Assembly (NCBI GenBank): GCA_023150535.1
Contig: JAKLKS010000001.1
Location: forward strand, 8,269 to 72,268
From: Planctomycetota bacterium
GTDB lineage: Bacteria; Planctomycetota; JAJSAM01; JAKLKS01
Length of the DNA stretch: 64,000 nt
Direction: 5' to 3'
Of this stretch, positions 35,134 to 53,790 are shown in pieces. The position numbers and the translations under genes are program-made. The notes beneath the pieces are model-generated. The model had not been told where the DNA came from and ran no database searches. It saw nothing but the letters and a program-made list of their open reading frames with translations. Position 1 is the first letter of the stretch. Every line of letters begins with the position of its first letter.

Positions 35134-36554
35134 TGGGCGATGGCTGGCCCAGGAACACCCTTGATGTGCCCCCCGGGACGAGCCCTCATGCGGACATGCC
35201 CAGGAACCAGACCCCGGAGCCGCTCGATCCCGAGGCCCGAGACCGGCGCTCCGCATCATCCTCCCACGAGGAGGGGGGCCGGCGGCGCCGACGGGTATTC
35301 GGACGGATCTACCGCAAGCCCACCTCGCAGTCGACGTGGTACGTCCGGTTCCCGGACCCCGAGCGGCGCCGGGCCCCGAACGGGCGGGTCCGGGAGATCG
35401 TCCGGTCGGTCCCGTCCCGCCGGGCGGCCGAGGCCCTGCTCGCGGAAGTCCGGAAGGCCCTCTACGCGGGCACCTACGCCCCGCCGCCCCCGGCCCTGGC
35501 GGGACCCGCGGCCCTCACGATGCAGAGCGCCGCCCCGGGGACCGCCGCCGAGACTCCCGCCCGCCCCTTCACCGTCCTCGACGCCATCGACGAGTACATC
35601 GCCTCCCGCGAGGCCGCGGGCCGGATGCGGAACACGCTCGACTCCTACCGCGGGCACCGCAACGCGATCGCGCAGAGCCCGCTGGGAACCGTCCCTGCCG
35701 ACGCGGTGACCCCGGCGGACATCGAGGCCTTCCGGGCCTGGCGGCGGGAGCGATCCTGGAAGACGGTCCGCCGGCCCGGGGAGGTGAAGGATCCCGACGT
35801 GACGGAGGTCGCCCGGGCTGCGTCGAACGCAACGGTGAACCGGGCGCTGATGGTCCTTGGGGCCTCACTCAACCGACTCGTGAAGCTGGGGCGCCTCCGG
35901 GAGAACCCAGTCCTCCGGGTCGTGAAGGCGCGGGAGGCACGCCAGCCGCGGGTCTCCCTCACCAAAGACGAGGCCCGCCGCCTCATCGAGGCTTCCGACC
36001 CGGCCCTCCGGCCGCTCGTGGCCGCGGGGCTCTACACCGGGGCGCGTCTCGGAGAGCTCCTCCGTCTCACGTGGGCGGACGTCACCTTCGGGTCCGGGAG
36101 TGGGACGGGGACCATCTCCCTCTTCCGGCCCAAGGTCGGGAACGCCTCCCGGATCCCGTTCCACCCACGGCTCGCCGAGGAACTCCTGCGGGTCCGGGAG
36201 TCGCGGGCACGCAAGCGCGGCCGGCCCGTCCCCGATGACGAGCCCATCTTCCTCTCGTCCTACGGCCGGGCGTGGGTGACCATCGGGGGGGCGTTCAAGA
36301 AGGCGCTCCGGACCGCGGGCCTCGAGGGGCGGGGCATCGTCTACCACAGCCTCCGCCATACGTTCGCCGTCCACTTCCTCGAGGGCGGCGCGGCGGTGAC
36401 CGACCTCCAGGGGATCCTCGGCCACGCGGACCTCACCACGACCCAGATCTACGCCCACATGGTGGACAGCCGGACTCGAGCGAGTCTGGTCGCCCTCGAC
36501 TACGGGGCGCCGGCGGCCACGGGAGACGGCGCAGATCCCGGCCCAGCCCGATAG
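35133..36554 (+). CDS. int: Tyrosine-type site-specific integrase
   Basis: R...HSLRHTFAV...Y catalytic pattern (GARLGELLRLTWADV, YHSLRHTF, TTQIYAHM); ends 33 nt before tRNA. Confidence 0.9.
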   Translation: MGDGWPRNTLDVPPGTSPHADMPRNQTPEPLDPEARDRRSASSSHEEGGRRRRRVFGRIYRKPTSQSTWYVRFPDPERRRAPNGRVREIVRSVPSRRAAEALLAEVRKALYAGTYAPPPPALAGPAALTMQSAAPGTAAETPARPFTVLDAIDEYIASREAAGRMRNTLDSYRGHRNAIAQSPLGTVPADAVTPADIEAFRAWRRERSWKTVRRPGEVKDPDVTEVARAASNATVNRALMVLGASLNRLVKLGRLRENPVLRVVKAREARQPRVSLTKDEARRLIEASDPALRPLVAAGLYTGARLGELLRLTWADVTFGSGSGTGTISLFRPKVGNASRIPFHPRLAEELLRVRESRARKRGRPVPDDEPIFLSSYGRAWVTIGGAFKKALRTAGLEGRGIVYHSLRHTFAVHFLEGGAAVTDLQGILGHADLTTTQIYAHMVDSRTRASLVALDYGAPAATGDGADPGPAR

Positions 36555-36586
36555 AATACCCCCCTGTTGCAACGGGCCGCATCTGG

Positions 36587-36663
36587 GTCCCCGTAGCTCA
36601 GTAGGATAGAGCGGCTGGTTCCTAACCAGCAGGTCGCAGGTTCGACTCCTGCCGGGGATACCA
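36587..36663 (+). tRNA. tRNA-Arg (anticodon CCU)
   Basis: Hand-folded cloverleaf: acceptor GUCCCCG/CGGGGAU, D arm GCUC-AGUAGGAUA-GAGC, anticodon stem GCUGG/CCAGC loop UUCCUAA, T arm GCAGG-UUCGACU-CCUGC, discriminator A, encoded CCA. Confidence 0.9.
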
Positions 36664-36731
36664 GAACTCCCTCATCGTTGATCTTCGCCGCGGTCGAGGC
36701 CGCTCCTTGGGTGTAATGGGTGGTGCGGAAT

Positions 36732-36760
36732 TTGACAGGCATCATCCTGTCGGCTACGGT
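36732..36760 (+). promoter_or_regulatory. Putative promoter/operator upstream of czc module 1 (TTGACAGGC box with 6-6-6 inverted repeat GACAGG-N6-CCTGTC)
   Basis: TTGACAGGC also present upstream of module 2 at 43651; rare AT-containing hexamer in this GC-rich DNA. Confidence 0.35.
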
Positions 36761-36768
36761 TCCGGCCC

Positions 36769-37173
36769 ATGTACGCTTTCTCCCGCTGGTTGCTTGTCCT
36801 CCCGATGGTCGCCATGGCCCTCTTGCCATTCGGTTCCGGCGGCATCGTTCTCTGCGTGGACAACGGACCCAACGCGCACGTCGCCATCGAGTGGGGCCCG
36901 TGCGACGTCTCTCGATGCGTCCCTGCTATTCCTACGGCACCTCAGGGCCCGTCCGCGGGGAGTGAAACGCAGTGCACCGCCTGCGAGGACCTGCCGCTCC
37001 CCCGGTGGGATGCGCGCGGGATCGTCCGGTTGCAGATCCCGGACGTTGCCGTCGCTCCCCCTTCCGCCGGAGGTTTCGTCCTCGCGCCGCGCCATGTGGG
37101 GAGCCCCGCGCTCCATGCGGCCGTTCCGCGGCCCCGGGTCGCTCCCTCCCTCCCCCTCGCGCTCCGCATCTAG
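36769..37173 (+). CDS. CzcI-like small secreted Cys/His protein (DUF2946-like metal-resistance accessory)
   Basis: Signal peptide then LCVDNGPNAHVAIEWGPC...TQCTACEDLP; paralog of 44128..44535; immediately upstream of czcC. Confidence 0.5.
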   Translation: MYAFSRWLLVLPMVAMALLPFGSGGIVLCVDNGPNAHVAIEWGPCDVSRCVPAIPTAPQGPSAGSETQCTACEDLPLPRWDARGIVRLQIPDVAVAPPSAGGFVLAPRHVGSPALHAAVPRPRVAPSLPLALRI

Positions 37174-37224
37174 CCGGCTTCCTCGTCGGGTCTTCGTTCC
37201 CGTTCCCCGTCCCGAGGAAGCCCC

Positions 37225-38565
37225 ATGCGATCCGCCGTTCTCGCTGCCGTACTCTGCGCTCTCGTCACACCCTCCTGCGCCAGCACCGGCAGGCCTGCGT
37301 TGCCGCCGCCCCGGCCGCTGGGAGCGGAGGTGCGTCCGCCAGCCGAGAGTGGGCCGCTACCGGAGGAACCGGACGGCCCGCTGACGCTTCGCGAGGCGCT
37401 GGCGCTGTCCCTCCTCCGCAGCCCCTCCCTTCCTGCGGCAGCACTGGAGGTCCGGGCGGCCGAGGCCCGCCAGATCCAGGCAGGGCTCCTCCCCAATCCC
37501 GAGGCCTCCTACTCCCACGAGAACGTCGGAGGGACGCTCAAGGACAGCGCCGAGAGGACGGTGCTGCTCTCCCAGCTCGTGGAGCTCGGCGGGAAGCGTT
37601 CCGCCCGGATGGCCGTGGCGGAGGGGGAGGCGGAGCTCGCCGGCTGGGACTACGAGGCCCTCCGGCTCGACGTCCTCACCGCGACGGCCCGGGACTTCGT
37701 CGGGGTGCTCGGGGCCCAGGCGCGGCTTCGTGTCGCCGAGGACTCCCTGCGCATCGCGGAGGAGACCCTGCGGGCGACGAGGGCCCGCGCCGAGGGCGGG
37801 GCCGTGGGACCCGTGGAGGTGCGGCGGATCGAGATCGACGCGGCCGCGGTGTCCATCGAGCGGGACAAGGCCGCGGCCGACCTCGAAGGAGAGCGCGCCC
37901 GCCTGGTGTCGAACTGGGGGTCGAAGAGACCCCGTTTCACCGAGGCGGTCGGCGACCTCCCGCCCGTCCCGGCGCCACCCGGCGCAGAGGACCTGGTGCC
38001 GCTCCTCGACCGCAATCCGGACCTTGCCCGCTTCGAGGCCGAGGAACGGGTGCTCCGGGCGGAGCTCGACGCGGCGAAGGCGGGGCGCATCCCGGACGTG
38101 ACCCTGGGCGCGGGACGCCGGGGCTTCGAGGAGACGGGCGACCGCGGCTACCTGTTCGAGGTCTCGATGCCGCTCCCCGTCTTCGACAGGAGGCAGGGGG
38201 AGATCGCAGCCGCGGAGGCGCGGCTCTCCGCTGTGCGCATGCGCCGGAACGCCGCGCAGCAGAGGCTGCGGGCCGACCTCGTGGCCGCGAGGGCGGCTCT
38301 GGATGCCTCCGTGCGGGAGGCCGAGTCCTTCCGGATCCGCATCGTCCCCTGGTCCCGAGAGGTCCTCGAGGCCACGACGGAGCGCTACCGTGCCGGCAAG
38401 GTCGGCTACCTGGAGCTCCTCGACGCGCGGCGGACCTACGCGGAGTCCGCGGCGAGGGAGGCGGAGTCCCTGGCGGGGCTCCACCGCAGGCGCATCGAGA
38501 TCGAGCGGCTCATCGCCGGACCGCTGGAGGCCGCACCCGCGCCCGGCCCGGAACGGAAGGAGTGA
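37225..38565 (+). CDS. czcC: Outer membrane efflux protein CzcC (TolC family)
   Basis: 446 aa, signal peptide, two coiled-coil repeats typical of OMF. Confidence 0.85.
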   Translation: MRSAVLAAVLCALVTPSCASTGRPALPPPRPLGAEVRPPAESGPLPEEPDGPLTLREALALSLLRSPSLPAAALEVRAAEARQIQAGLLPNPEASYSHENVGGTLKDSAERTVLLSQLVELGGKRSARMAVAEGEAELAGWDYEALRLDVLTATARDFVGVLGAQARLRVAEDSLRIAEETLRATRARAEGGAVGPVEVRRIEIDAAAVSIERDKAAADLEGERARLVSNWGSKRPRFTEAVGDLPPVPAPPGAEDLVPLLDRNPDLARFEAEERVLRAELDAAKAGRIPDVTLGAGRRGFEETGDRGYLFEVSMPLPVFDRRQGEIAAAEARLSAVRMRRNAAQQRLRADLVAARAALDASVREAESFRIRIVPWSREVLEATTERYRAGKVGYLELLDARRTYAESAAREAESLAGLHRRRIEIERLIAGPLEAAPAPGPERKE

Positions 38566-38569
38566 CTCC

Positions 38570-40063
38570 ATGAAGACCAGGATCCCGTTGGGCATGGCCG
38601 CGGTGATGGGGCTCGCTCTCCTGCTGGTCGGATGCGGCAAGGGAGAGCACGTGGAGAACGCGCCCCGCGGCGGGCACAAGGAGCAGGCCGGGGAGGCGGG
38701 CCACGAAGGCCATGCCGGCGAGGCCGGGCACGAAGGGGAGGAGGAAGGTGGCGACCATGTCGCCCTCTCCCCCGAGGCGGCCGCCGAGGCCAAGTTGGAG
38801 ATCGGATCGCCAGGCCCCGGGAAGATCGAGATCTCGCTGGAACTCCCCGGCGAGGTGATCGCTGACCCGGACCAGGTGGCCCACATCACGCCGAAGGCCG
38901 CCGGCACGGCACGGGAGGTGAAGGCTGTCCTCGGCTCGCGGGTGAAGGCGGGCGAGGTGCTGGCGGTCATCGAGAGCCCCGAGCTCGGCGAGGCGAAGAT
39001 CGGATACCTGGAGGCGCTCCGGGCGCGGGACCTCGCCTCCTTCGACCACGACCGCCAGAGCACGGTGAGCGGGAACACCAAGACCATGCTCGGCGTGCTG
39101 GCGAAGGAACCGAGCCCGGAGGCCGCACGGGAGGAGACCGCCGGGCTGGCCATCGGAGAGGACAAGGGCCGACTGCTCACGGCCTACTCCAACCACAGGC
39201 TCGCGAAGCGCAACCGCGACCGCGAAGAAGACCTCTTCCGGCGGAAGATCAACAGCGAGGCCGAGCTCCTCACGGCGAGGAACGCCTTCGACGCGGCGGC
39301 GGCCGAGTACGCCTCGGTGCGGGAGTCCGTGGAGTTCGCCCACGTGGCGCGGCTCCTGGACGCTCAGAGGGCGCTGCGCGCCGCGGAGGCGAACCTCCAG
39401 AACCGCGAGCGGCGGCTCCACCTCCTCGGCGTCGCCGAGAGCGAGGTCGAGGGTCTCGGCAAGGAGCCCGACGACCGCATCGCGTGGTACTCGCTCCGCT
39501 CCCCCATCGAGGGCATCGTCGTCGAGAAGCACTGCGTCCTCGGGGAGAGCGTGGACACCTCAACGCGGGTGTTCGTAGTGACGGACCTCTCTCGCGTGCA
39601 GGTGCGGTTCCAGGTGCCGCCCGCCGACCTCCCGCGAGTGCGCCCCGGCCAGAAGGTGCGCGTCCGAGTGGACGGGCTCGATGCGTCGGGCGAGGGGCGC
39701 GTGGACTACCTCAGCCCCGTCGCGGAGGAGAGGACCCGCATGGCCGAGGGCCGGGTCTTCCTCCCGAACCCCGACGGGAAGTGGCGGCCCGGGCTCTTCG
39801 GGGCCGTCCGGATCGTGCTCGAGGAGGCGGAGGCGAAGGCCGCGCTCCCGGCCGAGGCCGTCTTCCGGCACGAGGGGCGCGAGGTGGTCTTCGTCGAGGA
39901 GGAGGAGCGGAAGTACGAGCCCCGGCCCGTCCGCATCGGCCGCAGGGACCCGGCGACGGTGGAGGTCCTGGAGGGGGTCAAGCCCGGGGACAAGGTGGTC
40001 GTGAAGAACGGCTTCGTCCTCAAGGCGGAGCTCGGGAAGGAGGCGGGCGGCCATGACCACTAG
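38570..40063 (+). CDS. czcB: Membrane fusion protein CzcB with His-rich N-terminal segment
   Basis: Start MKTRIPLG at 38570 with AAGGAG RBS; lipoprotein-like signal; GHKEQAGEAGHEGHAGEAGHEGEEEGGDH then RND MFP domains. Confidence 0.85.
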   Translation: MKTRIPLGMAAVMGLALLLVGCGKGEHVENAPRGGHKEQAGEAGHEGHAGEAGHEGEEEGGDHVALSPEAAAEAKLEIGSPGPGKIEISLELPGEVIADPDQVAHITPKAAGTAREVKAVLGSRVKAGEVLAVIESPELGEAKIGYLEALRARDLASFDHDRQSTVSGNTKTMLGVLAKEPSPEAAREETAGLAIGEDKGRLLTAYSNHRLAKRNRDREEDLFRRKINSEAELLTARNAFDAAAAEYASVRESVEFAHVARLLDAQRALRAAEANLQNRERRLHLLGVAESEVEGLGKEPDDRIAWYSLRSPIEGIVVEKHCVLGESVDTSTRVFVVTDLSRVQVRFQVPPADLPRVRPGQKVRVRVDGLDASGEGRVDYLSPVAEERTRMAEGRVFLPNPDGKWRPGLFGAVRIVLEEAEAKAALPAEAVFRHEGREVVFVEEEERKYEPRPVRIGRRDPATVEVLEGVKPGDKVVVKNGFVLKAELGKEAGGHDH

Positions 40064-40409
40064 CGCCATGTTCCGGGTGCGGGGCGTGTTCCAGCCGCAC
40101 CGACTCGCGGAGGTGGTCCGGGCGCTGCACGCGCTCCCGCACTTCCCGGGGTTCACGGTCCAGGACGTGCGGGGGCAGGGGCGCGGTCGCGGAGCGGGCG
40201 GGGCCTTCAAGGTGGTCGAGGACGAGATCGACTACCACCGGAAGACCGCCATCGAGGTCGTCTGCGCCGGCAGTCAGACGGACGCTGTCGTGCAGGCCAT
40301 CCTGCGAGGGGCGAAGACCGGCCACGCGGGCGACGGCATCGTCATCGTCGAGCCGCTAGCTCGCGTCGTCCGGATCCGGACGGGCGAAGAAGGGGAGGGG
40401 GCGGTCTGA
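40053..40409 (+). CDS. P-II (GlnB-like) family protein embedded between czcB and czcA
   Basis: 118 aa, ...GDGIVIVEPLARVVRIRTGE... P-II fold signature; overlapping start/stop both sides. Confidence 0.65.
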   Translation: MTTSAMFRVRGVFQPHRLAEVVRALHALPHFPGFTVQDVRGQGRGRGAGGAFKVVEDEIDYHRKTAIEVVCAGSQTDAVVQAILRGAKTGHAGDGIVIVEPLARVVRIRTGEEGEGAV

Positions 40410-43400
40410 TGCTCGACAGGGTCCTCCTCTTCGCCGTCCGGCAGCGTATCTTCGTGGTCCTCCTCGCCGTCGCGCTCGCGGGGGTCGGGATCTGGTCCTT
40501 CGGAAAGCTCCCCATCGACGCCGTGCCGGACATCACCAACGTCCAGGTGCAGATCAACACCCAGGTCCAGGCGCTGTCCCCGGTCGAGGTGGAGAAGCTG
40601 GTCACCTTCCCCATCGAGTGGGCCATGGGGGGCATCCCCGGGGTGGAGCAGGTGCGCTCGCTCTCCCGGTACGGGCTCTCCCAGGTCACGGTCGTCTTCG
40701 AGGACGGGACCGACATCTACCGGGCCCGCCAGCTCGTGGCCGAGCGGCTCCTGGAGGCGAAGGAGTCGCTCCCGGCCGGGATCGGGGAGCCCACGATGGG
40801 CCCCATCTCCACGGGGCTCGGCGAGATCTACATGTGGGAGGTGCACGCGACGGGTCCGAGGCCCGACGGGAGCCCGTACTCCCTGACCGATCTGCGGACT
40901 GTCCAGGACTGGATCGTCCGGCCGCAGCTCCGCACGGTGCCCGGCGTGACCGAGGTGAACAGCATCGGCGGCTACGAGCGCCAGATCCACGTGACGCCCG
41001 ACCCCGCGAAGCTCCGCGCCTACGGGCTCTCCTTCCGGGACGTGGCGGATGCCCTCGCGGCCAACAACGCCAACGTCGGCGGCGGCTACGTCGAGCACCG
41101 GGGCGAGCAGTACGTCATCCGCTCCACGGGCCGCGTGGAGTCGCTGGAGGACGTCCTCAACGTGAAGCTCGGGGTCCACGACGGGGTCCCGGTCCTGGTC
41201 CGCCACGTCGCCGGGGCGGCCGAGGGGAAGGAGCTTCGCACGGGGGCGGCGACGGTGAGCGGCGAGGAGGCGGTCGTCGGGACGGCCATCATGCTCCTCG
41301 GCGAGAACAGCCGGACCGTCTCCCGTCGCGTGGACGAGAAGATCCGGGCCATCGCGAAGTCCCTCCCGGAGAACGTGGAGGTCAAGACCCTCTACGACCG
41401 TACCTACCTGGTCGAGGCCACGCTACAGACCGTGCGGAACAACCTGCTCGAGGGCGCCGTCCTCGTGATCGTGATCCTGTTCCTCCTCCTGGGACACGTG
41501 CGGGCGGCGTTGATCGTGGCTCTCGCCATTCCGCTCTCGATGCTGTTCGCCGTGGCGGGGATGGTGCGAGGCGGGATCAGCGGGAACCTCATGAGCCTGG
41601 GCGCCGTGGACTTCGGGATCATCGTGGACGGGGCGGTGGTGATGGTGGAGCACATCCTCCGGCGCCTGGGAGAGGCGGGGCACAACCTAGGACGTGCCCC
41701 CACGCGGGCGGAGCGCGTCTCGCTGGCCTACGAGGCGTCCCGGGAGGTGGCGCGACCGGTCCTCTTCGGGGTCGGGATCATCATGATCGTCTACATCCCG
41801 ATCCTGAGCCTGACGGGGATCGAGGGGAAGATGTTCCGGCCGATGGCGGAGGTGGTGCTCCTGGCGCTGGCCGGCTCGCTGCTCCTCACGTTTACGCTGG
41901 TCCCGGCGCTCATCGCCCTCCTCCTCGGGGGGAAGGTCTCCGAGAAGGACAACGCGCTCGTCCGCGCGGCGAAGGCCTCCTACGCGCCGACGCTGGACGT
42001 CGCGCTCCGCCGCCCAGGGCTCGTCGTGGGCTCGGCCCTCCTCCTCCTCGCGGGGACGGGGCTCCTCGCCTCGGGGCTCGGGAGCACGTTCGTCCCGAAG
42101 CTCGGGGAGGGCGCCATCGCGGTCCAGCCGGCGCGGATGCCCTCCATCTCGCTGGGACAGAGCGTCGCCATGCAGGGGCAGGTCGAGAAGCGGCTCCTCG
42201 CGGAGTTCCCCGACGAGGTGCTCTCCGTCTTCGCCCGTACGGGGACCGCGGAGGTGGCCACCGATCCGATGGGCCCCAACGTCTCCGACACCTACGTGAT
42301 GCTGAAGCCTCGCGAGGGGTGGAAGAAGGCCCGCACGCAGGAGGAACTGGCCGACCGGATGGCCGAGGCGCTGGAGGCCGTCCCCGGGCAGGCCTACGAG
42401 TTCAGCCAGCCCATCGAGCTGCGGTTCAACGAACTCATCTCCGGGGTCCGGAGCGACCTCGCCGTGAAGGTCTTCGGGGACGACCTGGAGACCCTCCGGG
42501 GGTACGCCGGGAAGGTGGCTCGGATCCTGGGCGGCATCCCGGGGGCGGCCGACGTGAAGGTGGAGCAGGTGACGGGGCTTCCCGTGCTGACCGTGGAGGT
42601 GGACCGCGCCGCCATCGCGCGCTACGGGCTCAACGTGGCCGAAGTGCAGGAGGTGGTCGAGATCGCGCTCGGGGGCCGTGAGGCGGGAGAGTGGATCGAG
42701 GGGGACCGCCGGACGCCGCTCGTCGTGCGTCTCCCGGAGCGCATCCGCAACGACCTCGACTCTCTCCGCAACCTCCCGGTGCCCGTCCTCTTAGGGGGGT
42801 CGGACGAGGAGCCTCCCGGTGACGGGGAAACGTCGTCCGGGGGGCCCTCGTTCCTCCCGCTCTCGACCTTTGCCCGTATCGAGCTCGTCGAAGGGCCCAA
42901 CCAGATCAGCCGCGAGGCCGGCAAGCGCAGGGTCGTCGTCCAGTGCAATGTGCGGGGGCGGGACCTCGGGTCCTTTGTCGAGGAGGCCCAGGTCCGCATC
43001 GACCGGGAGATCCCCAAGCTCCCCGAAGGCTACTGGCTCGGCTGGGGCGGTCAGTTCGAGAACCTCATCGCTGCGAAGGAGAGGCTCGAGGTCGTTGTCC
43101 CGCTGGCGCTGTTCCTCATCCTGCTGCTCCTCTTCGCGACCTTCGGGTCCATCAAGCAGGCGCTCCTCGTCTTCACGGGAGTCCCCCTGGCTCTCACCGG
43201 GGGCGTGGTCGCCCTGTGGGCCCGGGACCTTCCGTTCTCCATCTCCGCGGGGATCGGGTTCATCGCGCTGTCGGGAGTCGCGGTGCTGAACGGCCTCGTG
43301 ATGGTGTCCTTCATCAACCGGTTGCGCGAGGAAGGGAGGCCGCTCGCGGACGCCGTCCGGGAGGGATCGCTGGCCCGGCTCCGCCCCGTGCTGATGACGG

Positions 43401-43633
43401 CGCTGGTCGCCTCGCTGGGCTTCGTGCCGATGGCGCTGGCCACGGGGACGGGCGCGGAGGTCCAGAGGCCGCTGGCCACGGTGGTCATCGGGGGACTCGT
43501 CTCCTCGACGCTGCTCACCCTCGTTGCCCTGCCGGTCCTCTACCGGCTGTTCCACCGCGGCGATGAGAGCGGGAACGGGATGCCCTCAGCCCCAGTCCCC
43601 GAACCCTCTCCGGCGGCAACGCCGGCCGCATGA
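40409..43633 (+). CDS. czcA: Heavy-metal efflux RND transporter CzcA/CusA family
   Basis: 1074 aa, 12-TM RND with HME-type motifs. Confidence 0.95.
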   Translation: MLDRVLLFAVRQRIFVVLLAVALAGVGIWSFGKLPIDAVPDITNVQVQINTQVQALSPVEVEKLVTFPIEWAMGGIPGVEQVRSLSRYGLSQVTVVFEDGTDIYRARQLVAERLLEAKESLPAGIGEPTMGPISTGLGEIYMWEVHATGPRPDGSPYSLTDLRTVQDWIVRPQLRTVPGVTEVNSIGGYERQIHVTPDPAKLRAYGLSFRDVADALAANNANVGGGYVEHRGEQYVIRSTGRVESLEDVLNVKLGVHDGVPVLVRHVAGAAEGKELRTGAATVSGEEAVVGTAIMLLGENSRTVSRRVDEKIRAIAKSLPENVEVKTLYDRTYLVEATLQTVRNNLLEGAVLVIVILFLLLGHVRAALIVALAIPLSMLFAVAGMVRGGISGNLMSLGAVDFGIIVDGAVVMVEHILRRLGEAGHNLGRAPTRAERVSLAYEASREVARPVLFGVGIIMIVYIPILSLTGIEGKMFRPMAEVVLLALAGSLLLTFTLVPALIALLLGGKVSEKDNALVRAAKASYAPTLDVALRRPGLVVGSALLLLAGTGLLASGLGSTFVPKLGEGAIAVQPARMPSISLGQSVAMQGQVEKRLLAEFPDEVLSVFARTGTAEVATDPMGPNVSDTYVMLKPREGWKKARTQEELADRMAEALEAVPGQAYEFSQPIELRFNELISGVRSDLAVKVFGDDLETLRGYAGKVARILGGIPGAADVKVEQVTGLPVLTVEVDRAAIARYGLNVAEVQEVVEIALGGREAGEWIEGDRRTPLVVRLPERIRNDLDSLRNLPVPVLLGGSDEEPPGDGETSSGGPSFLPLSTFARIELVEGPNQISREAGKRRVVVQCNVRGRDLGSFVEEAQVRIDREIPKLPEGYWLGWGGQFENLIAAKERLEVVVPLALFLILLLLFATFGSIKQALLVFTGVPLALTGGVVALWARDLPFSISAGIGFIALSGVAVLNGLVMVSFINRLREEGRPLADAVREGSLARLRPVLMTALVASLGFVPMALATGTGAEVQRPLATVVIGGLVSSTLLTLVALPVLYRLFHRGDESGNGMPSAPVPEPSPAATPAA

Positions 43634-43675
43634 CCACGGGATTGGGGATCTTGACAGGCCGGTGTTCATTCCATA

Positions 43676-43704
43676 CCTTTGGAAATGATGAAGCGTTCCA
43701 AAGG
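43676..43704 (+). promoter_or_regulatory. Perfect 9-11-9 inverted repeat CCTTTGGAA-N11-TTCCAAAGG spanning ArsR start codon (candidate autoregulatory operator)
   Basis: Seen directly; preceded by TTGACAGGC at 43651. Confidence 0.4.
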
Positions 43705-44128
43705 ACGAAAGGGCTGGAGGCGGCGCGTCGCCGAGGGCGTCTGCGAGGTGGACTTCGTGGACCCGGTCGAGGTAGCCGCGGCCCGCAAGGCCTCACCCGA
43801 GGAACCCATCCTCCGCGCGGCGGCGGAGGCGTTCCACGTCCTCTCCAACCCGAGCCGCCTGCGCATCCTCCTGGGGCTCGAGGGGCGGGAGCTCTGCGTT
43901 TGCGACCTGGCGGCGCTGCTCGGCCTCTCGATGGCGGGGACCTCCCAGCAGCTCAAGGAGCTCCGCAATGCCGGGGCCGTGGCCTACAGGGCACAGGGGA
44001 AGCTGGCCTACTACCGGATAGCGGATCCCTCCTGGCTCAAGTTGGCGCGGAGCGCGCTCGAAGGGGCTGCGGTCCGGCCCGGCGTCCCGCCCCTTCGCGG
44101 GGTAGTCGTGGAGCGGGCCGCGTCGTGA
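43685..44128 (+). CDS. ArsR/SmtB-family metalloregulator
   Basis: HVLSNPSRLRILLGLEGRELCVCDLAALLG HTH with CVC metal site. Confidence 0.8.
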   Translation: MMKRSKGRKGWRRRVAEGVCEVDFVDPVEVAAARKASPEEPILRAAAEAFHVLSNPSRLRILLGLEGRELCVCDLAALLGLSMAGTSQQLKELRNAGAVAYRAQGKLAYYRIADPSWLKLARSALEGAAVRPGVPPLRGVVVERAAS

Positions 44129-44535
44129 TGCGGCGCGTCCTCCCGCTGGTCCTCCTTGCGCACACGTGGCTCCTCTTCCTGCCGGGAGGGGTCAGCATCT
44201 GCGTGCACACGGACGGTACCTGGAAGCTGGAGTCGGCGGCGTTCCCCTGCTGCGCCGGCAGGGGCACGAGCGGGGAGCTGGAGCCCCGGCACGGTCCCGA
44301 GGCAGGCAGGGACGGATGCGAGGACTGCACCGACTACGCCGTGCCCACCGTGAGGGACGCCGCGATTGCAGGCTCCGTCAGGAGAACCGTTCCAGCCCAG
44401 GTCGCGTCCCTTGCGGTCCTCGAGTCGCCTCTGACCGCGGTCGTCGTCGCGCCGGGACTCTGGGACCTGAGGGACCGGCCGCTCCGAAGGCCGCCGCCTC
44501 CCGGACCGCGGACCACGACCGTCCTTCGCTGCTAG
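44128..44535 (+). CDS. CzcI-like small secreted Cys/His protein (paralog 2)
   Basis: Signal peptide then ICVHTDGTWKLE...GCEDCTDYAVP; homologous to 36769..37173. Confidence 0.5.
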   Translation: MRRVLPLVLLAHTWLLFLPGGVSICVHTDGTWKLESAAFPCCAGRGTSGELEPRHGPEAGRDGCEDCTDYAVPTVRDAAIAGSVRRTVPAQVASLAVLESPLTAVVVAPGLWDLRDRPLRRPPPPGPRTTTVLRC

Positions 44536-44624
44536 CGATCCGGCGCGAGCCGGCGGGGCATCGACCGCCCCGGTCCGGCCTCCGGGGTTCGCTCCCCCTT
44601 CCCCAACCGCGTCCGGAGACACGC

Positions 44625-46067
44625 ATGCCGAGGCCGTTCCCCACATCCTGGATCCTCCTGCCCGCCGTTGCGCTCGCGGGATGCGTCTCCTACGAACCGG
44701 ATCCGCTCGACCCGGCGAAGGAGCTCGCGGCGCTCAGGACCCGCGGGATCCCGGAGGTCGAGCTGGTCCGCAGCACCGCCGGGCCTCTGGTTCCCCGGGG
44801 GGCGGCGTTCGATCCAGCGGACGGCCTCGACGAGGCGGAGCTCGTCGCGGTCGCGCTGACCCTCAACCCGGAGCTCCGGGCGAGGCGGCTGGAGGCCGGC
44901 GAGGCCCGCGCGGCGCTCATCCAGGCGGGTCTCTGGCCCAACCCGGAGGTCGGCCTGTCGGTCGCCCGAGGCCTGGAGTCGGGCGCCGGCACGACCGTCG
45001 ACTTCGACTTCCTCTTCGAGCTCCTCCGTGGGGCGGAGAGGTCGGCGAGGATCGACGCTGCCACGGCGAAGGTGGAGGAGGTCCGGGCGGGGATCGTGGC
45101 CGAGGAGTGGCGCCTCGCGGCCGAAGTCCGCCGCCAGCGGCTTGCGGTCCTCGCGGCCGAGAGGGAGGTCTCGCTCCTCGGGGAGGAGGCCGCGCTCCGA
45201 GAGAGGACTCGGGAGACGGTCCGGCGGCGCCGCGACATGGGAGAGGGCACCGAGGTGGAGGTGGCGGCCTCGGACCTGGAGGTCGCCGAGGTCCGCCGGG
45301 AGACCCTTCGCGCCGAGGGAGAGGTCGAGGCCGCCCGGCGCGAGCTCGCCCGGCTCCTCGGACTCCCTCCCGGGTACGCCCTGCGGATCGTCGGATCCGG
45401 TGACCCGCTCCCGGTGGAGGTGCTGCCGGATGTCCCCGAGGCCGAGATCGACCGCCGCCTCCTCGCGGGCCGCCCGGACCTGAAGGCGCTGGAGGCGGCC
45501 TACAAGCGTGCGGAGCACGAGCTCCGGCTCGCGGTCGAGAGGCAGTACCCGCACCTCAATCTCGGTCCGCTGATCACCCGCGAGGACGACGGGGCCTGGC
45601 ACGCGGGGCCCTCCATCGGCCTGGAGCTGCCCCTCTTCGACCGCAACCAGGGGGAGATCGCCGAGAAGGAGGCGCAGCGCGCAAGGGCCCGGGCCGAGTA
45701 CGTCGCGGCGCTCCAGCGCGCCCGGGCGGAGGCCATGGACGCCCTGGGCCGCATGCGGAGGGTCCGGACGGAGCTGGACGCCTTCGAGAAGGAGGTCCTG
45801 CCGCTCGTGCAGCGCACCCAGGATCTCGCCGAGAGGGCGTTCCGGGCGGGCGAGGTCGGGGTCCTCGACTGGATCACGGCCCAGCAGAGGGCGCTCACGA
45901 CCCGCAAGGCGCTCCTGGAGTCCGCGGTCCGGTACCGGGCCGCGGCGCTGGACTTCGAGGCCGCCGTCGGACCGCCGCCGGAGGCGATCGATGCCGGGAG
46001 CGGGCGGGACAAGGATGCGGGACCCCCGGGAGAACAGCCCCCGGCGGGTCCGAGGAGGCAGCGATGA
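44625..46067 (+). CDS. czcC: Outer membrane efflux lipoprotein CzcC paralog
   Basis: Start MPRPFPTSWILLPAVALAGC lipobox; TolC-family repeats. Confidence 0.85.
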   Translation: MPRPFPTSWILLPAVALAGCVSYEPDPLDPAKELAALRTRGIPEVELVRSTAGPLVPRGAAFDPADGLDEAELVAVALTLNPELRARRLEAGEARAALIQAGLWPNPEVGLSVARGLESGAGTTVDFDFLFELLRGAERSARIDAATAKVEEVRAGIVAEEWRLAAEVRRQRLAVLAAEREVSLLGEEAALRERTRETVRRRRDMGEGTEVEVAASDLEVAEVRRETLRAEGEVEAARRELARLLGLPPGYALRIVGSGDPLPVEVLPDVPEAEIDRRLLAGRPDLKALEAAYKRAEHELRLAVERQYPHLNLGPLITREDDGAWHAGPSIGLELPLFDRNQGEIAEKEAQRARARAEYVAALQRARAEAMDALGRMRRVRTELDAFEKEVLPLVQRTQDLAERAFRAGEVGVLDWITAQQRALTTRKALLESAVRYRAAALDFEAAVGPPPEAIDAGSGRDKDAGPPGEQPPAGPRRQR

Positions 46068-47692
46068 GTGAAGACACGCGGACGCTGGGGTCGTCGGTCG
46101 TCCGGTTGGGCTCCACGGTGCTCGTCTTCGGGGCTCTCGGCGCCGTGGGCCTCTGGGGCCACCGCAATGGCTGGAAGGCACCGAAGTTCTCGGAAGCCAT
46201 GGGGAAGGCGCCCGTCGTCGAGGAGAAAGAGGACTGGTGCGAGGCGCACAACGTCCCCGACTCCAAGTGCATCGCCTGCCACCCGGAACTCGCTGGCGGC
46301 AACGCCAAGGACTGGTGCAAGGAGCACGGCGTCCCCGAGTCGAAGTGCACCGCCTGCCACCCCGAGATCCTCGAGAAGGGCAAGGCCGACGACTGGTGCA
46401 AGGAGCACGGACTCCCCGAGTCGCAGTGCACGCTCTGCCACCCGGAGATCGCGGTGAAGGGCGAGGTCCCGAAGGACCCGGCGGCGCCGGCGGTCGTGGC
46501 TGAGCCCGGTGCTCCCGGCGCCAAGGAGCCCTTCACCTGCCAGACGCACCACCTCCGGGTGCAGTTCGCCAGCGCGGAGGCCGTGCGGAAGGCGGGAGTC
46601 GCCCTCGGTCCCGTCGAGGAGCGCCCCATGGCCGCACGCCTCGTCGCCAACGGGGAGACGGACTACGACCAGACCCGCGTCGCGCGGGTCTCGGTGAAGG
46701 CAGCCGGGACCGTCGCGCGGGTCTTCAAGGAGGTCGGGCAGGAGGTCCGGCGGGGCGAGGTCGTCGCGCTCGTGGACGCGGAGGAGGTCGGTAAGGCGAA
46801 GGCGGAGTTCCTCTCGGCCCTGGCCCAGGCGGACGTGAAGGCTCGGGTCCTCGAGCGCATCCAGGCTTCCGCGAAGGAGGGCCTGCGCCCCAAGGCGGAC
46901 CTCCAAGAGGCGGAGGCCGAGGCCCGGGAGGCGCGCATCAGCGTCTTCAACGCCCAGCAGCGGCTCGTGAACCTCGGCCTCCCCGTCCGCGCGGAGGACG
47001 TTTCAGGGCTCGCGGACGACGCGCTCACGGAGCGGATGCGCCTCCTGGGCCTCCCGACCGAGGTCGCGAAGTCCCTGGGAGACAGGGCCGCGACCGCGAA
47101 CCTCCTCCCGGTCACGGCCCCGCTCGACGGCGTCGTCATCGAGAAGGAGACGGTGCCGGGTGAGGTCGTGGAGGCGGCCCGGACCCTCTTCGTCGTAGCC
47201 GACGTCTCCCGCATGTGGGTGCAGCTCGACGTCCGGCAGGAGGACGCCTCCCTCGTCGCAACGGGGCAGGCGGTCTCCTTCCATCCCGACGGGGCCCGAG
47301 ACGGCGCCTTCAAGGGGAAGGTGACCTGGATCGCGACGGCCGCGGACGAGAGGACCCGCACGGTCCGCGTGCGGGCCGAGGTCGAGAACCCCGACCGCGC
47401 CATCCGCGCCCGGACCTTCGGCACGGGACGCATCACCGTCCGCGAGGCCCCGAAGGCTGTGGTCGTTCCCGACGAAGCGGTGCAGTGGGAGGGCTGCTGC
47501 CACGTCGTGTTCGTGCGCCTGAGCGACGAGATCTTCCAGACCCGCAAGGTGCGCGTCGGCGTCCGTTCGGGGGGCTTTACGGAGGTGCTGGGTGGTGTCC
47601 TCCCGGGCGAGGTGGTCGCCACGGCGGGGAGCGCGGTGCTCAAGGCGGACATCCTGAAGAGCAAGCTCGGCGCCGGCTGCGTGGACGACTAG
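46064..47692 (+). CDS. czcB: Membrane fusion protein CzcB paralog with three N-terminal DWCxEHGxPESxCxxCHPE repeats
   Basis: 542 aa; ATGA overlap with czcC2; repeats at aa 57-135 then MFP domains. Confidence 0.85.
   Translation: MSEDTRTLGSSVVRLGSTVLVFGALGAVGLWGHRNGWKAPKFSEAMGKAPVVEEKEDWCEAHNVPDSKCIACHPELAGGNAKDWCKEHGVPESKCTACHPEILEKGKADDWCKEHGLPESQCTLCHPEIAVKGEVPKDPAAPAVVAEPGAPGAKEPFTCQTHHLRVQFASAEAVRKAGVALGPVEERPMAARLVANGETDYDQTRVARVSVKAAGTVARVFKEVGQEVRRGEVVALVDAEEVGKAKAEFLSALAQADVKARVLERIQASAKEGLRPKADLQEAEAEAREARISVFNAQQRLVNLGLPVRAEDVSGLADDALTERMRLLGLPTEVAKSLGDRAATANLLPVTAPLDGVVIEKETVPGEVVEAARTLFVVADVSRMWVQLDVRQEDASLVATGQAVSFHPDGARDGAFKGKVTWIATAADERTRTVRVRAEVENPDRAIRARTFGTGRITVREAPKAVVVPDEAVQWEGCCHVVFVRLSDEIFQTRKVRVGVRSGGFTEVLGGVLPGEVVATAGSAVLKADILKSKLGAGCVDD
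46232..46465 (+). repeat. Three tandem ~78-81-nt coding repeats (GACTGGTGC(A/G)AGGAGCACGG...TGCCACCC)
   Basis: Repeat units start at 46232, 46310, 46391; encode the CxxC/His motif. Confidence 0.7.
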
Positions 47693-47710
47693 GGGACCCC
47701 GGGGACCGCC

Positions 47711-50860
<3,150 letters not shown>

Positions 50861-50872
50861 GAAGGAGGAGTC

Positions 50873-51226
50873 ATGCGCAGGGCGAACGAACGCAGGGCGT
50901 TCCTGGCGGTTGCGTTGCTGTACGCGGCGAGCGCCTCGGGTTGCGGCGGAGAGGAGAAGCCGGCGGCACCGACGCAGGCACCACCGGCGAAGCCAGAGCC
51001 CGCCTCCCCGAAGGTCCCTCTCGTCGCGCCGCCCAAGGCCGCGGACTGGTGCGGGGAGCACGGGGTGCCGGAGTCCGCGTGCACGCGCTGCAACGCCGAC
51101 CTCGTTCCGGAGTTCAAGAAGAAGGGCGACTGGTGCGACAAGCACGGCCTCCCGGAGTCCCAGTGCGTGACCTGCGACCCCGCCGTCGCCGAGAAGCTCA
51201 AGGCCCTCGCCCCGGCGGGCAAGTAG
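50873..51226 (+). CDS. Periplasmic lipoprotein with two DWCxxHGxPESxC repeats (putative metallochaperone)
   Basis: Signal + lipobox ASASGCGG; DWCGEHGVPESACTRCN and DWCDKHGLPESQCVTCDP. Confidence 0.65.
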   Translation: MRRANERRAFLAVALLYAASASGCGGEEKPAAPTQAPPAKPEPASPKVPLVAPPKAADWCGEHGVPESACTRCNADLVPEFKKKGDWCDKHGLPESQCVTCDPAVAEKLKALAPAGK

Positions 51227-51246
51227 GCCTGGTGGCGCTCGCTGCC

Positions 51247-51681
51247 ATGGACGGGGCATCCGGGAGCCGGCCCTGGACTCGCACCGTCGCGAGGGGCGTG
51301 TGCGAGGTGGACAGCGCCCATACCGATCGCATGGAGGCCGCACGGCGAGCTCTCCCCGGGGAGGACATCCTCCGCGAGGTCTCGGGCACCTTCCGCCTGC
51401 TCTCTCACCCGGCAAGGCTCCGGATCCTGCTCCTCCTGCAGACGCGCGAGCTGTGCGTCTGCGACCTGTCGGCGCTCCTCGGTCTCCCGATGCCGGAGAC
51501 GGTGCGGCACCTCCGGAGGCTCCGGTCCGCGGGGGCGGTCACCTACCGGACTGAAGGGAAGATCGCGTACTACCGGCTGGCCTGCCCTTCGTGGCCCAGG
51601 CTGGTGGCCAAGGCGATCGCGGAGGGCGAGGAGCGAGGAGCTCATCCAGGTCTGCGACGTGCAGCGGGGCGGCGGCCGTGA
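51247..51681 (+). CDS. ArsR/SmtB-family metalloregulator (paralog 2)
   Basis: FRLLSHPARLRILLLLQTRELCVCDLSALLG. Confidence 0.8.
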   Translation: MDGASGSRPWTRTVARGVCEVDSAHTDRMEAARRALPGEDILREVSGTFRLLSHPARLRILLLLQTRELCVCDLSALLGLPMPETVRHLRRLRSAGAVTYRTEGKIAYYRLACPSWPRLVAKAIAEGEERGAHPGLRRAAGRRP

Positions 51682-52358
51682 AGGATGAGAGGATCGCGAC
51701 CGGACCAAAGGTGGATCCGCTGCCCTTGCGCGGAGCCGTTCCAGCGAGGGACTGGCGCAGAACCGCGATCTGGCTCGTCAGTGCGACCCTGGCTTACAAC
51801 GTGGTCGAGGCCGTGATCGCCCTCTGGAGCGGCGAGAGGGCCGACAGCATCGCGCTGTTCGGCTTCGGGCTCGACAGCGTGATCGAGTTCTCTGCCTCCG
51901 GGGTCGTCCTCTGGCGCTACCGGGTCGAGTCGGCGGGAGGCTCCGTCGAGGCCGTCGAGGTGGCCGAGAAGCGGGCGCATCGGTTCATCGGGGGCACGTT
52001 CCTTGCGCTCGCGGCCTACGTGGCGGCGAATGCCGGCTGGACCCTGTGGAAAGCGGAAGCCCCGCAGCCCAGTCTCCCGGGCATCCTCCTCGCCACGGCG
52101 TCGCTCCTCGTCATGCCGGTGCTGTCCGTCGCCAAGCTCCGCGTCGCGTCCCGCCTCGGGAGCCGGCTCCTCCGCGCCGAGGCGAAGGAGACCCTGGCGT
52201 GCTCCTGGCTCTCCCTCACGCTCCTCCTTGGCCTCGCGGCGAACGCGTGGCAGGGCTGGTGGTGGGCCGATCCCGTCTCTGCCATTGCAATGGTCCCCTG
52301 GCTTGTGAAGGAGGGCCTCGAGGGTCTCCGCGGAGAGGAGTGTGCGTGCGATGAATGA
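51678..52358 (+). CDS. Cation-efflux (CDF)-like membrane protein lacking C-terminal domain; ends ...GEECACDE
   Basis: Several TM helices, ADSIALFGFGLDSVIEF resembles CDF TM2; GTG start overlapping ArsR stop (uncertain). Confidence 0.55.
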   Translation: MKDERIATGPKVDPLPLRGAVPARDWRRTAIWLVSATLAYNVVEAVIALWSGERADSIALFGFGLDSVIEFSASGVVLWRYRVESAGGSVEAVEVAEKRAHRFIGGTFLALAAYVAANAGWTLWKAEAPQPSLPGILLATASLLVMPVLSVAKLRVASRLGSRLLRAEAKETLACSWLSLTLLLGLAANAWQGWWWADPVSAIAMVPWLVKEGLEGLRGEECACDE

Positions 52359-52406
52359 GGAGGTCCGGGCGCCCATCCCCTCCGTCTTGACGGGCGGGAG
52401 CGCCCG

Positions 52407-52769
52407 ATGAAGCACCGCGGGGCTGGAGAGGCCGGGTGGTACCGACGCAACTGGAAGACGGTGGCCGGCGTCTGGGGGATCCTGCTCGGGCTGCTTGGTC
52501 TCGTCGCGGCGATCGGGTGGACGGCCATCTGGCTATCGCGGCCCAAGCCCCACGTGCATGTCCGGACCAACCTGGAAGTGGTCGAGCCCTCTGCCGACTA
52601 CCCGCTCGCGACGTGCGTCGTCAGCGGCAAGCCCCTCCGGCCCCTCCCGGACCGCATCGCCGTCATCTACGGCGGCACGGAGGTCCAGTTCTGCTGCGAG
52701 GTCTGCATCCCGGAGTTCGAGAAGGACCCGGAGAGGTTCATGAAGACCGTGCGGGACAAGTCCCGATGA
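52407..52769 (+). CDS. Membrane-anchored YHS/TRASH-domain metal-binding protein
   Basis: One TM helix then ATCVVSGKPL...IYGGTEVQFCCEVCIPEFEKDPERF. Confidence 0.7.
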   Translation: MKHRGAGEAGWYRRNWKTVAGVWGILLGLLGLVAAIGWTAIWLSRPKPHVHVRTNLEVVEPSADYPLATCVVSGKPLRPLPDRIAVIYGGTEVQFCCEVCIPEFEKDPERFMKTVRDKSR

Positions 52770-52820
52770 CTCCCCGCCGCCGTGTACCGTCGGGCGCAGG
52801 TCCACCGGGAGGAGCCTGAG

Positions 52821-52934
52821 ATGCACACGACCACCCTCGACCCGTGGAAGCACCGGCACGACTTCGGGGCGGACGCCTACGGGACCGCCGAGCGACCCAC
52901 CCGCTGGGTCGTGGGGCTCCGCGCCCCGAACTAG
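52821..52934 (+). CDS. Possible small ORF (37 aa, MHTTTLDPWKHRHDFGADAYGTAERPTRWVVGLRAPN)
   Basis: Strong SD GGGAGGAGCC 7 nt upstream of ATG; below ORF-track size cut-off. Confidence 0.3.
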   Translation: MHTTTLDPWKHRHDFGADAYGTAERPTRWVVGLRAPN

Positions 52935-53110
52935 ATCGGTTTCACCCGACCTCCCGCCACAATCCCCCCGACGCGGCGCGGGTCGGAGCAGAGATGGACA
53001 CCCCTTGGTACCCTGAGGTCCGCAACGGAAACTGAGGGTCCGATGGTGTCGTTGTAACCCACGCAGCCACAAGGGTTACGGCGCTACGGGGTGGGGCGCC
53101 CGACCCGAGC

Positions 53111-53158
53111 GTCAGTTTAGGAAACCGCCGCTCTATCCTACTGAGCTACGGGGACACC
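53111..53158 (-). pseudogene. Inverted partial copy of tRNA-Arg(CCU) 5' half (29 nt identical, ~45 nt similar), not foldable into a complete tRNA
   Basis: Minus strand reads GGUGUCCCCGUAGCUCAGUAGGAUAGAGCGGCGGUUUCCUAAACUGAC then unrelated GC-rich hairpins; no matching acceptor 3' strand or T arm. Confidence 0.5.
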
Positions 53159-53224
53159 GTGGACCTCGCGGCATCCTACCGCGCGGGCGCCGCCGCGGGG
53201 AGATCCCGGAGACCGGAGGACCCC

Positions 53225-53563
53225 ATGGACGCCCCCCCCACCATCGACGACTTCGCCCGGCTGGACCTCCGCGTCGGCACCATCCGCGAGTGCCTCCCCT
53301 TCCCCGAGGCCCGCAGGCCCGCCTGGCGGCTCACGGTCGACCTCGGGCCCCTCGGCCTCAGGACCTCCAGCGCGCAGCTCACCGGCCTCTACCGCCCCGA
53401 GGACCTCGTCGGCCGCCAGGTCCTCGCCGTCGTCAACCTCCCGCCCCGGCGCATCGGCCCCTTCGTCTCCGAGGTCCTCGTCACCGGGTTCCCCGACGCC
53501 GAAGGACGCGTCGTCCTCGCCGTCCCCGAGCGACCCGTCCCCGACGGCGCCCGCCTCTTCTGA
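53225..53563 (+). CDS. csaA: tRNA-binding domain protein CsaA-like
   Basis: Start MDAPPTIDDFARLDLRVGTI; OB-fold tRNA_bind signature. Confidence 0.7.
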   Translation: MDAPPTIDDFARLDLRVGTIRECLPFPEARRPAWRLTVDLGPLGLRTSSAQLTGLYRPEDLVGRQVLAVVNLPPRRIGPFVSEVLVTGFPDAEGRVVLAVPERPVPDGARLF

Positions 53564-53595
53564 CCCCGTCGGGGCCCCCTCGGGCGGAGGGTACG

Positions 53596-53790
53596 ATGGG
53601 GTCCATGGACACCGCCGAGGCCCTGCGCGCCGCCGCCCGCCTGCGAACGGCCCTGGACATGCACGACTTCGGCGTGGCCATGGAGAGGCAGAGGCTCCGC
53701 AGGCTCGACCCCGCCGCACCGGAGGAGGAGATCGAGGGCCGCCTCCTCCGCTGGCTCCGGGACCTTCCCCCCGACGCGGACTCCCCGTGA
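53596..53790 (+). CDS. Small hypothetical protein (64 aa)
   Basis: C-terminal part of ORF 53290..53790. Confidence 0.3.
   Translation: MGSMDTAEALRAAARLRTALDMHDFGVAMERQRLRRLDPAAPEEEIEGRLLRWLRDLPPDADSP

Follow-up and report, generated by a model that had tools for sequence, protein, structure and literature searches.

In this 64,000-nucleotide stretch of a Planctomycetota bacterium genome (the window), a native host tRNA-Arg(CCU) gene at 53.1 kb is broken at its anticodon loop, very probably at an integrase attachment (att) junction. A second, intact tRNA-Arg(CCU) lies in the opposite orientation at 36.6 kb, directly behind a tyrosine integrase gene, with about 16 kb of metal-efflux genes between the two and a prophage to the left. 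By analogy with a recently described phage lifestyle, the locus is best read as tRNA-dependent lysogeny in a Planctomycetes form, in which metal-efflux genes are the cargo. The full composite, in which prophage, excisionase, integrase, tRNA, metal cargo and attachment arm form one element that brings a replacement tRNA, is the account towards which we lean. Comparisons across genomes use the contigs L099, L109, L115-L118, L120, L121, L124, L125, L127 and L129, and these handles are kept below wherever one relative has to be told from another.

The native tRNA gene is broken at its anticodon loop

The fragment at 53115-53155 (minus strand) consists of nt 1-41 of the csaA-linked, native tRNA-Arg(CCU) gene. 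It holds the 5' strand of the acceptor stem, the D arm, the 5' strand of the anticodon stem (GCGGT), the 7-nt loop TTCCTAA (53117-53123) and then AC, and the break follows nt 41. Over these 41 nt it is identical to the intact tRNA gene at the orthologous position in L115, where tRNA-Arg(CCU) lies divergently upstream of csaA and the metal-efflux genes are absent. Identity to that gene runs from the upstream “cacggt” through tRNA nt 41 and is then lost; on the arm side, it stops 2 nt past the 7-nt loop. The promoter and spacer of the broken gene (53156-53224, minus strand, with a TAGGAT box) are divergent, common to csaA, and orthologous to the spacers of L115 and L118. The host flank then opens with a CsaA-like tRNA-binding-domain protein (53225-53563, plus strand; Pfam tRNA_bind; NCBIfam CsaA, E 2e-43), and the series of csaA, an SDF transporter, a 579-aa protein, MMPL and SfsA is syntenic with L115-L117, which are without the metal genes and have a CsaA 79% identical to that of the window.

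Because the L115 ortholog matches through nt 41, the fragment is the native promoter plus the first 41 nt of the native gene, and not a decayed duplicate of the gene at 36.6 kb. An earlier note on this DNA had called it a degenerate copy and had proposed a comparison with relatives lacking the metal genes. That comparison favours the integration history which the note had suggested, and shows its degenerate copy to be the native gene itself.

The broken gene does not make a tRNA. ARAGORN calls none at 53.1 kb, the Rfam tRNA model scores 17.7 bits (cut-off 29 bits), no group I intron family matches, and over the 850 nt past the break neither a 7/7 acceptor partner nor a 5-bp T stem nor a T-loop consensus occurs. 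The note was therefore right that the copy cannot form an acceptor stem or a T arm; the case that it had named against itself, a long-arm tRNA with proper acceptor pairing, was looked for in these same searches and not found. The further similarity that it had seen through the anticodon loop is also genuine, and against the native gene of the relative the true tRNA match reaches nt 41. There is no copy of the tRNA 3' half, of either type, in the window, nor any direct repeat of either tRNA half; the two tRNA-derived sequences are inverted. A group I intron or a split tRNA had been considered for this site, as the anticodon arm looked intact, and was rejected because Rfam reports no intron and a 3' exon is missing. 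A Y-RNA-like (YrlA) RNA was rejected too, as it reached 15-16 bits against a cut-off of 69.

The DNA past the break is an attachment-site arm

What had been described as GC-rich hairpins past the break is a conserved attachment-site arm. This arm, called X here (52921-53114, minus strand), is homologous to the DNA downstream of the integrase gene in L129 and L121 and to the corresponding arm of L124. All on the minus strand, X contains a copy of a promoter-like box (the U box, copy 2, 52921-52969), a 38-nt motif with the near-palindromic centre GCGGACCTSAGGTCCGC (52994-53031) and, after a spacer, about 38 nt that stand in place of the tRNA 3' part (53077-53114). It is 72% identical to L129 (E 5e-20) and aligns with the L124 arm over 260 nt (E 9e-19). 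In L129 and L121, the integrases of which are 73-75% identical to that of the window, the homology begins exactly at the integrase stop codon.

Six arm loci were aligned (window, L124, L115, L121, L129 and L118). They are colinear from the promoter-like box through the 38-nt motif and the spacer up to the 7-nt loop, with one motif copy per locus. The distance from motif to loop is 85 nt in the window, L115, L121 and L129 and 86 nt in L124, and L118 aligns like the window. The arm meets the tRNA from the 5' side in the two tRNA-Gly(CCC) loci and from the 3' side in the tRNA-Arg loci; in L115 it still follows a true tRNA 3' part. A motif geometry that stays fixed whatever the orientation of the tRNA points to an integrase arm-type site and argues against an RNA function. 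The alignments thus identify X as the integrase-side att arm, which meets the native tRNA at the loop.

X is also the best-conserved piece of its neighbourhood. In L118, with a CsaA 83% identical to that of the window, the YHS gene, a 37-aa open reading frame (ORF), X and the fragment already stand next to csaA. Between the two loci X is 97.2% identical and the fragment 100%, the YHS gene and csaA are at 82-83%, and the adjacent spacer is at 72%. Such conservation is what we would expect of an att arm that is still in use; a neutral scar would not be so conserved.

L120, an unrelated low-GC contig, has a Pfam-confirmed integrase gene followed directly by tRNA-Arg nt 1-41 and then by the same post-break bases, ACTGAC; judged by this order, the locus looks like the unintegrated attP form. 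An ORF beside the partial tRNA of L120 was tried as Phage Mu-F-like, for which there is no Pfam support. We also rejected the X motif as an integrase C-terminus (RGHLLRT and stop), as the integrase tails past ALDYG are read-through without conservation and the frame in L115 is a different one.

An intact tRNA gene follows the integrase gene

The intact tRNA-Arg(CCU) occupies 36587-36663 (plus strand) and starts 33 nt past the integrase stop codon. ARAGORN calls it, Rfam gives it 69.3 bits, and it folds as a cloverleaf, with all 5/5 pairs in the anticodon stem (GCTGG/CCAGC), a T stem of GCAGG/CCTGC and an encoded CCA. It is identical at 77/77 positions to the integrase-linked tRNA of L124, and differs from the native csaA-linked type (GCGGT/ACCGC anticodon stem, AGAGG/CCTCT T stem) in anticodon stem, T stem and promoter. 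By these features it is a separate, self-consistent gene copy, and not the source of the fragment at 53.1 kb. Most likely it replaces the broken native gene; with that gene lost, the carried copy would presumably be needed.

The earlier note had paired this tRNA with an exact inverted match of 29 nt at 53127-53155, and ARAGORN, Rfam and a repeat search agree. The repeat search returns inverted arms at 36587-36636 and 53106-53155 (50 nt, 86%, the first 29 nt exact), and a 26-nt probe from the 5' end of the tRNA occurs in the window only at 36587 (plus strand) and 53130-53155 (minus strand), with 0 occurrences expected in shuffles. As the two tRNA sequences are inverted and belong to different genes, they are not the att pair of one simple island. 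The note had placed them at island borders; the att repeats of a simple insertion would be direct, and here stems and promoters differ.

Overlooked in the earlier note was a prophage that takes up all of the left 36 kb of the window and has its integrase gene next to the intact tRNA. The tyrosine integrase (35133-36554, plus strand, 473 aa; Pfam Phage_integrase, E 1.5e-21) is preceded by an excisionase-like HTH_17 gene, xis (34789-35133, plus strand; Pfam PF12728, E 3e-6), and L124 also has xis before the integrase gene. Relatives of this integrase (71-75% identity) likewise lie directly 5' of a tRNA gene, Arg-CCU in L124 and Gly-CCC in L121 and L129. Copy 1 of the promoter-like U box (…GATAGAATACCCCCC…) sits at the integrase stop (36515-36563, plus strand), where blastn aligns L129 9704-10010 with window 36263-36563 at 78%.

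The layout recurs, and strains have exchanged DNA up to the fragment

L124 comes from a different genome, with an integrase 71-73% identical to that of the window, and has the same order: xis, integrase gene, the identical intact tRNA-Arg(CCU), three unrelated ORFs, the arm, and an inverted tRNA 5' part that breaks right after TTCCTAA. As it recurs in the window and L124, this layout is a property of the element family, in which the cargo between carried tRNA and arm is variable. The intact tRNA and the fragment hold the only TTCCTAA cores in the window and the ~16 kb to its left, as do their counterparts in the 21 kb of L124.

Several relatives have features of their own around the tRNA. An inverted repeat in L124 (11321-11467 and 14178-14341) is perfect for ~85 nt and then, with identity falling, reaches into a diverged copy of the final ~26 codons of the integrase gene. 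The broken tRNA there would therefore once have been integrase-linked, and tRNAs carried by elements may have been the targets of serial integrations. A 45-nt direct repeat, from the anticodon loop to CCA, surrounds a 2.8-kb insert in L115 (7035-7079 and 9853-9897), and marks the csaA-linked tRNA-Arg(CCU) as a repeatedly used insertion hot spot. The insert carries small ORFs, of which one has an ankyrin repeat, and an integrase could not be recognised among them (an assignment of the small ORFs as integrases was unsupported); the arm motif follows the distal repeat. In L121 the family integrase and arm are followed by tRNA-Gly(CCC), and immediately 3' of this tRNA is a second, unrelated tyrosine integrase (9053-10297, minus strand); thus two elements abut one tRNA from both sides.

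A second strain is represented by L109-type contigs, which were chosen only by their variant CsaA (92% identical). Against window 49082-53207 these contigs have 0 differences; against 53208-53863 they have 49 differences in 656 nt (7.5%). At that rate, the chance of 0 differences over ~4 kb is about 1e-137. From this sharp edge it follows that host lineages have recently shared the DNA on the metal-gene side as far as the fragment, with the boundary between the loop and 53207. Between the positions corresponding to window 53863 and 53932, the second strain (L109 4705-5298) has, downstream of csaA and the small Rv0078B-like gene, an extra AbiEii-family gene that the window lacks. A CsaA scan of genome contigs gave no close relative: among the matches listed, all are at ≤69% identity.

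Prophage and metal-efflux genes

The prophage body (1-34521, minus strand) was assigned from PHROGs and Pfam matches, with Pfam run on identical contigs. It includes a partial tape measure gene and those for the major capsid (7556-8818), portal (9740-11023) and large terminase (13789-15666), all on the minus strand, together with genes for a DNA methylase, a primase/helicase, a Sak4-like protein, a PDDEXK nuclease and an ECF sigma factor. The prophage passes the left window edge and continues for ~15 kb in L099, L125 and L127, which are 100% identical to the window over the overlap; its size is at least 51 kb, ending at the tyrosine integrase.

Between large terminase and portal, an 836-aa DEAD/ResIII/Helicase_C_2 protein (11192-13702, minus strand) is encoded in a low-GC stretch (0.63-0.66 vs 0.72); a helicase-type gene within a phage packaging module is an unusual insertion. 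Just past the last phage-like gene, at L127 10318-10898 (~15.5-16.1 kb left of the window start), are the gene of a CsoR/RcnR-type metal-sensing repressor and the gene next to it. This region may be host DNA, or else the far end of the element with further metal-related cargo. Two additional ARAGORN calls are probably false positives in GC-rich sequence: a 96-nt “tRNA-Leu(CAG)” inside a 454-aa phage ORF (L099 10248-10343), and a 93-nt “tRNA-Arg(ACG)” at window 63663-63755, for which Rfam has no match even at E≤1.

The metal-efflux cargo region spans 36769-52769 on the plus strand, as assigned by Pfam and NCBIfam with gene calls on identical contigs. All genes are on the plus strand. A 134-aa ORF (36769-37173) is followed by the first module, with OEP (37225-38565), MFP (38570-40063) and RND (40409-43633) genes; between the last two is a P-II-like gene (40053-40409, 118 aa; PF00543, weak DUF3240) that is found in this module only. 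Then come an ArsR gene (43679-44128), a 135-aa ORF (44128-44535) and the second module (OEP 44625-46067, MFP 46064-47692, RND 47711-50860). The region ends with a 117-aa Cys-repeat ORF (50873-51226), a second ArsR gene (51307-51681), a weak CDF-like gene (51720-52358) and the YHS gene (52407-52769). The earlier account of two efflux modules, ArsR regulators, a CDF-like protein and a YHS protein is borne out for two OEP/MFP/RND modules, two ArsR-type regulators, the weak CDF-like gene and the YHS gene; the name czcI for the 134-aa ORF has no family support. GC content is uninformative as an island marker, being 0.70-0.74 in island and flanks alike.

The 37-aa ORF that follows (52821-52934, plus strand) has no family match. 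Its frame differs in L118, where its 3' end is not conserved as coding, and it has no significant similarity to the CDF-like protein or to integrase tails; readings as a truncated CDF N-terminus and as an integrase 3' relic are both unsupported. An 81-nt (27-aa) repeat without a family match occurs in five copies, at window 46220-46459 and 51032-51196, and encodes DWC-x-EHG-x-PES-x-C-x-x-C. Three copies are at the N-terminus of the second MFP and two in the 117-aa ORF that precedes the second ArsR gene. It is a possible metal-binding module shared by pump and regulator operon.

How the locus may have arisen

In the composite account, a tyrosine-integrase element, made up of a temperate prophage and the adjoining cargo region, would have recombined with the native minus-strand tRNA-Arg(CCU) gene that is divergent from csaA, and the crossover point would be the anticodon loop. 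Since arm X brings no usable tRNA 3' half, the junction would be a dead gene consisting of native promoter, tRNA nt 1-41 and arm. Compensation would come from the complete tRNA-Arg(CCU) which the element itself has downstream of its integrase gene, and the dual RND metal-efflux cluster would be cargo between carried tRNA and arm. That prophage, integrase, tRNA, metal genes and arm are one element is what we infer from the whole. A bolder form of this account is possible, and we offer it tentatively: a phage-derived element of ~68 kb or larger with a 16-kb RND cargo would destroy the native tRNA-Arg(CCU) and supply the only working copy, so that the host can hardly lose it, and within the same integrase family the arm, once at the 5' side of tRNA-Gly(CCC), would have come to address tRNA-Arg(CCU) from the 3' side, with the 85-nt geometry kept.

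A number of points weigh against the composite. A single element would be expected to have its far junction as TTCCTAA and then ACCGCAGGTCAGAGGTTCGAGTCCTCTCGGGGATACCA on the minus strand, and the search, which covered the window and ~16 kb to its left by way of L099, L125 and L127, did not find this other junction (tRNA 3' part, TTCCTAA, repeat). The implied size of one element exceeds 68 kb, and a 16-kb RND cargo would be unusual in a phage. The U box is present in the window both after the integrase gene and before X, whereas the tRNA-Gly relatives have the arm directly after the integrase gene; this duplication could stem from two tandem or nested elements, of which the second has lost its integrase. 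The block of strain identity extends ~52 nt beyond the tRNA 5' end, and the exchange between strains may thus have gone by way of homology in the flank instead of the att core. A viral collection scanned with four queries (junction, X core, degenerate motif and integrase) returned no relative. Lastly, the count of tRNA-Arg(CCU) copies covers the 64-kb window and short contigs, and the host may have a further one elsewhere in its genome.

The best-surviving competitor, less likely but still plausible, has two independent elements back to back. An old, integrase-less one would have broken the native tRNA and left the arm at 52921-53114 as a scar; the prophage would have inserted into a second tRNA-Arg(CCU) where the cluster begins on the left, or would have restored that gene from its 5' side; and the metal cluster would be chromosomal or separately acquired. 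The U boxes at 36515-36563 and 52921-52969 do resemble two integrase-proximal regions, and the attP-like form in L120 (integrase, tRNA nt 1-41, non-tRNA DNA) implies that some elements supply a 5' half, but the window and L124 would then have had to acquire the same inverted pairing separately. Rebuilding from the 5' side fits the order of integrase, arm and complete tRNA in the tRNA-Gly relatives; the far-end junction that it predicts for the prophage, a direct-orientation tRNA 5' fragment plus arm, is nevertheless absent within ~16 kb. The junction of fragment, arm and YHS gene is indeed old, being common to L118 at 83% CsaA identity, yet a dead scar should drift, and X has remained 97% conserved beside flanking genes at 82-83% and a spacer at 72%. 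On the metal-gene side, moreover, identity between strains is 100% as far as the fragment.

An inversion, in which 16.5 kb were flipped between two inverted tRNA-Arg-type sites, either by the integrase at the loop or by homologous exchange in the shared 29 nt, is improbable. The two sites are inverted and hold the sole loop cores of the region, but a loop crossover implies parental stems with 2 mismatches (GCGGT/CCAGC) and 3 mismatches (GCTGG/ACTGA), where the observed pair has 5/5 and 4/5. The exact identity of 29 nt could support homologous exchange; an intact attP resident in the chromosome would nonetheless be needed, and for a breakpoint in the 37-aa ORF the gene remainder predicted at the far end of the prophage is absent (L127 gap). 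Site-specific rearrangements that split elements, by intramolecular att recombination of this sort, are reported for tripartite integrative and conjugative elements (ICEs; PMC5882170), but here the same accident must recur in L124. Of the integration or inversion history proposed in the earlier note, integration is what remains, with a tRNA broken at an integrase attachment junction; inversion, or an exchange between two tRNA-Arg loci, is disfavoured.

Very improbable is a functional RNA gene driven by the native tRNA promoter (which might act as a tRNA-like noncoding RNA, as a decoy or in antisense on the YHS/efflux operon): X and the fragment are the most conserved part of the neighbourhood (97-100% vs 72-90% elsewhere), the promoter is still there, as is an anticodon arm that is all but intact (4/5 pairs), and there is a weak Y-RNA-like match far below threshold, but the predicted fold is no stabler than shuffles (z = -1.0), no Rfam family reaches threshold, and in the tRNA-Gly elements the motif is turned the other way relative to the tRNA with its loop distance unchanged, which suits a DNA-binding arm site better.

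Relation to known systems

The closest model for the composite account is the tRNA-dependent lysogeny of the actinobacteriophages Fionnbharth, LeBron and Gaia (Guerrero-Bustamante and Hatfull 2024, PMC10865867). In these phages, a tyrosine integrase uses an attB within a host tRNA gene, the common core is short (about 8-17 bp), and the tRNA is not rebuilt; the phage encodes a compensating cognate tRNA, which in Gaia is downstream of the integrase gene, and close relatives with long cores do rebuild (PMC10865867). The window fits several of the testable features. Its tyrosine integrase, with the xis-like gene, is contiguous with phage genes; its attB overlaps the host tRNA gene, with the break at the anticodon loop and stem; and a tRNA with the same anticodon follows the integrase gene, here as in L124, and would by this recurring architecture belong to the same element as the arm. 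At the junction that is seen, no tRNA is formed; the other junction was not found within ~16 kb to the left, and a tRNA may be rebuilt there. The relation of the window to L115, L121 and L129 also mirrors that between non-rebuilding and rebuilding relatives.

New here, compared with that recently described system, are the host phylum (a Planctomycetes metagenome-assembled genome), the target tRNA-Arg(CCU), the inverted arrangement of carried tRNA and broken gene, and the ~16 kb of metal-efflux genes between carried tRNA and att junction. In a full match to that system, the broken host tRNA would be essential or present as a single copy, and stable lysogeny would require the carried one.

Classical tRNA islands and prophages with the anticodon-loop sublocation (Islander, PMC4383910) share with the window a tyrosine integrase, a loop crossover and a tRNA fragment at the island end, and the 45-nt direct repeat of L115 with its 2.8-kb insert is the textbook form. 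They differ in that they restore the gene and leave a fragment which is a direct repeat of the 3' part. In the window, by contrast, what survives is the promoter with the 5' part, no restored gene stands at that junction, and beyond this piece tRNA-derived sequence occurs once more only, as a whole gene that points the other way. Accreted or multipartite elements, such as the tripartite ICE3 (PMC5882170) and phage-ICE tandems (PMC13651849), are alike in that mobile units share an att region, move or rearrange together and have odd att orientations. Here there are no conjugation genes or second intact integrase near the junction, and only one recombinase family is involved; tandem accretion predicts direct repeats, and those of the window are inverted.

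Implications

It is worth keeping in mind that tRNA 5' fragments with intact promoters may be att junctions and not random pseudogenes, and that tools which look for direct 3' repeats alone will miss such elements. The constant 85-nt spacing of the palindromic arm motif, in both Arg- and Gly-targeting relatives, provides a handle on how integrases change target. If the composite account is true, tRNA-dependent lysogeny reaches beyond the actinobacteriophages to the Planctomycetes, and a design that breaks the host tRNA and carries its own can be coupled to a large adaptive cargo, in this case two RND systems and their regulators. The tRNA would then be a possible retention device for the island.

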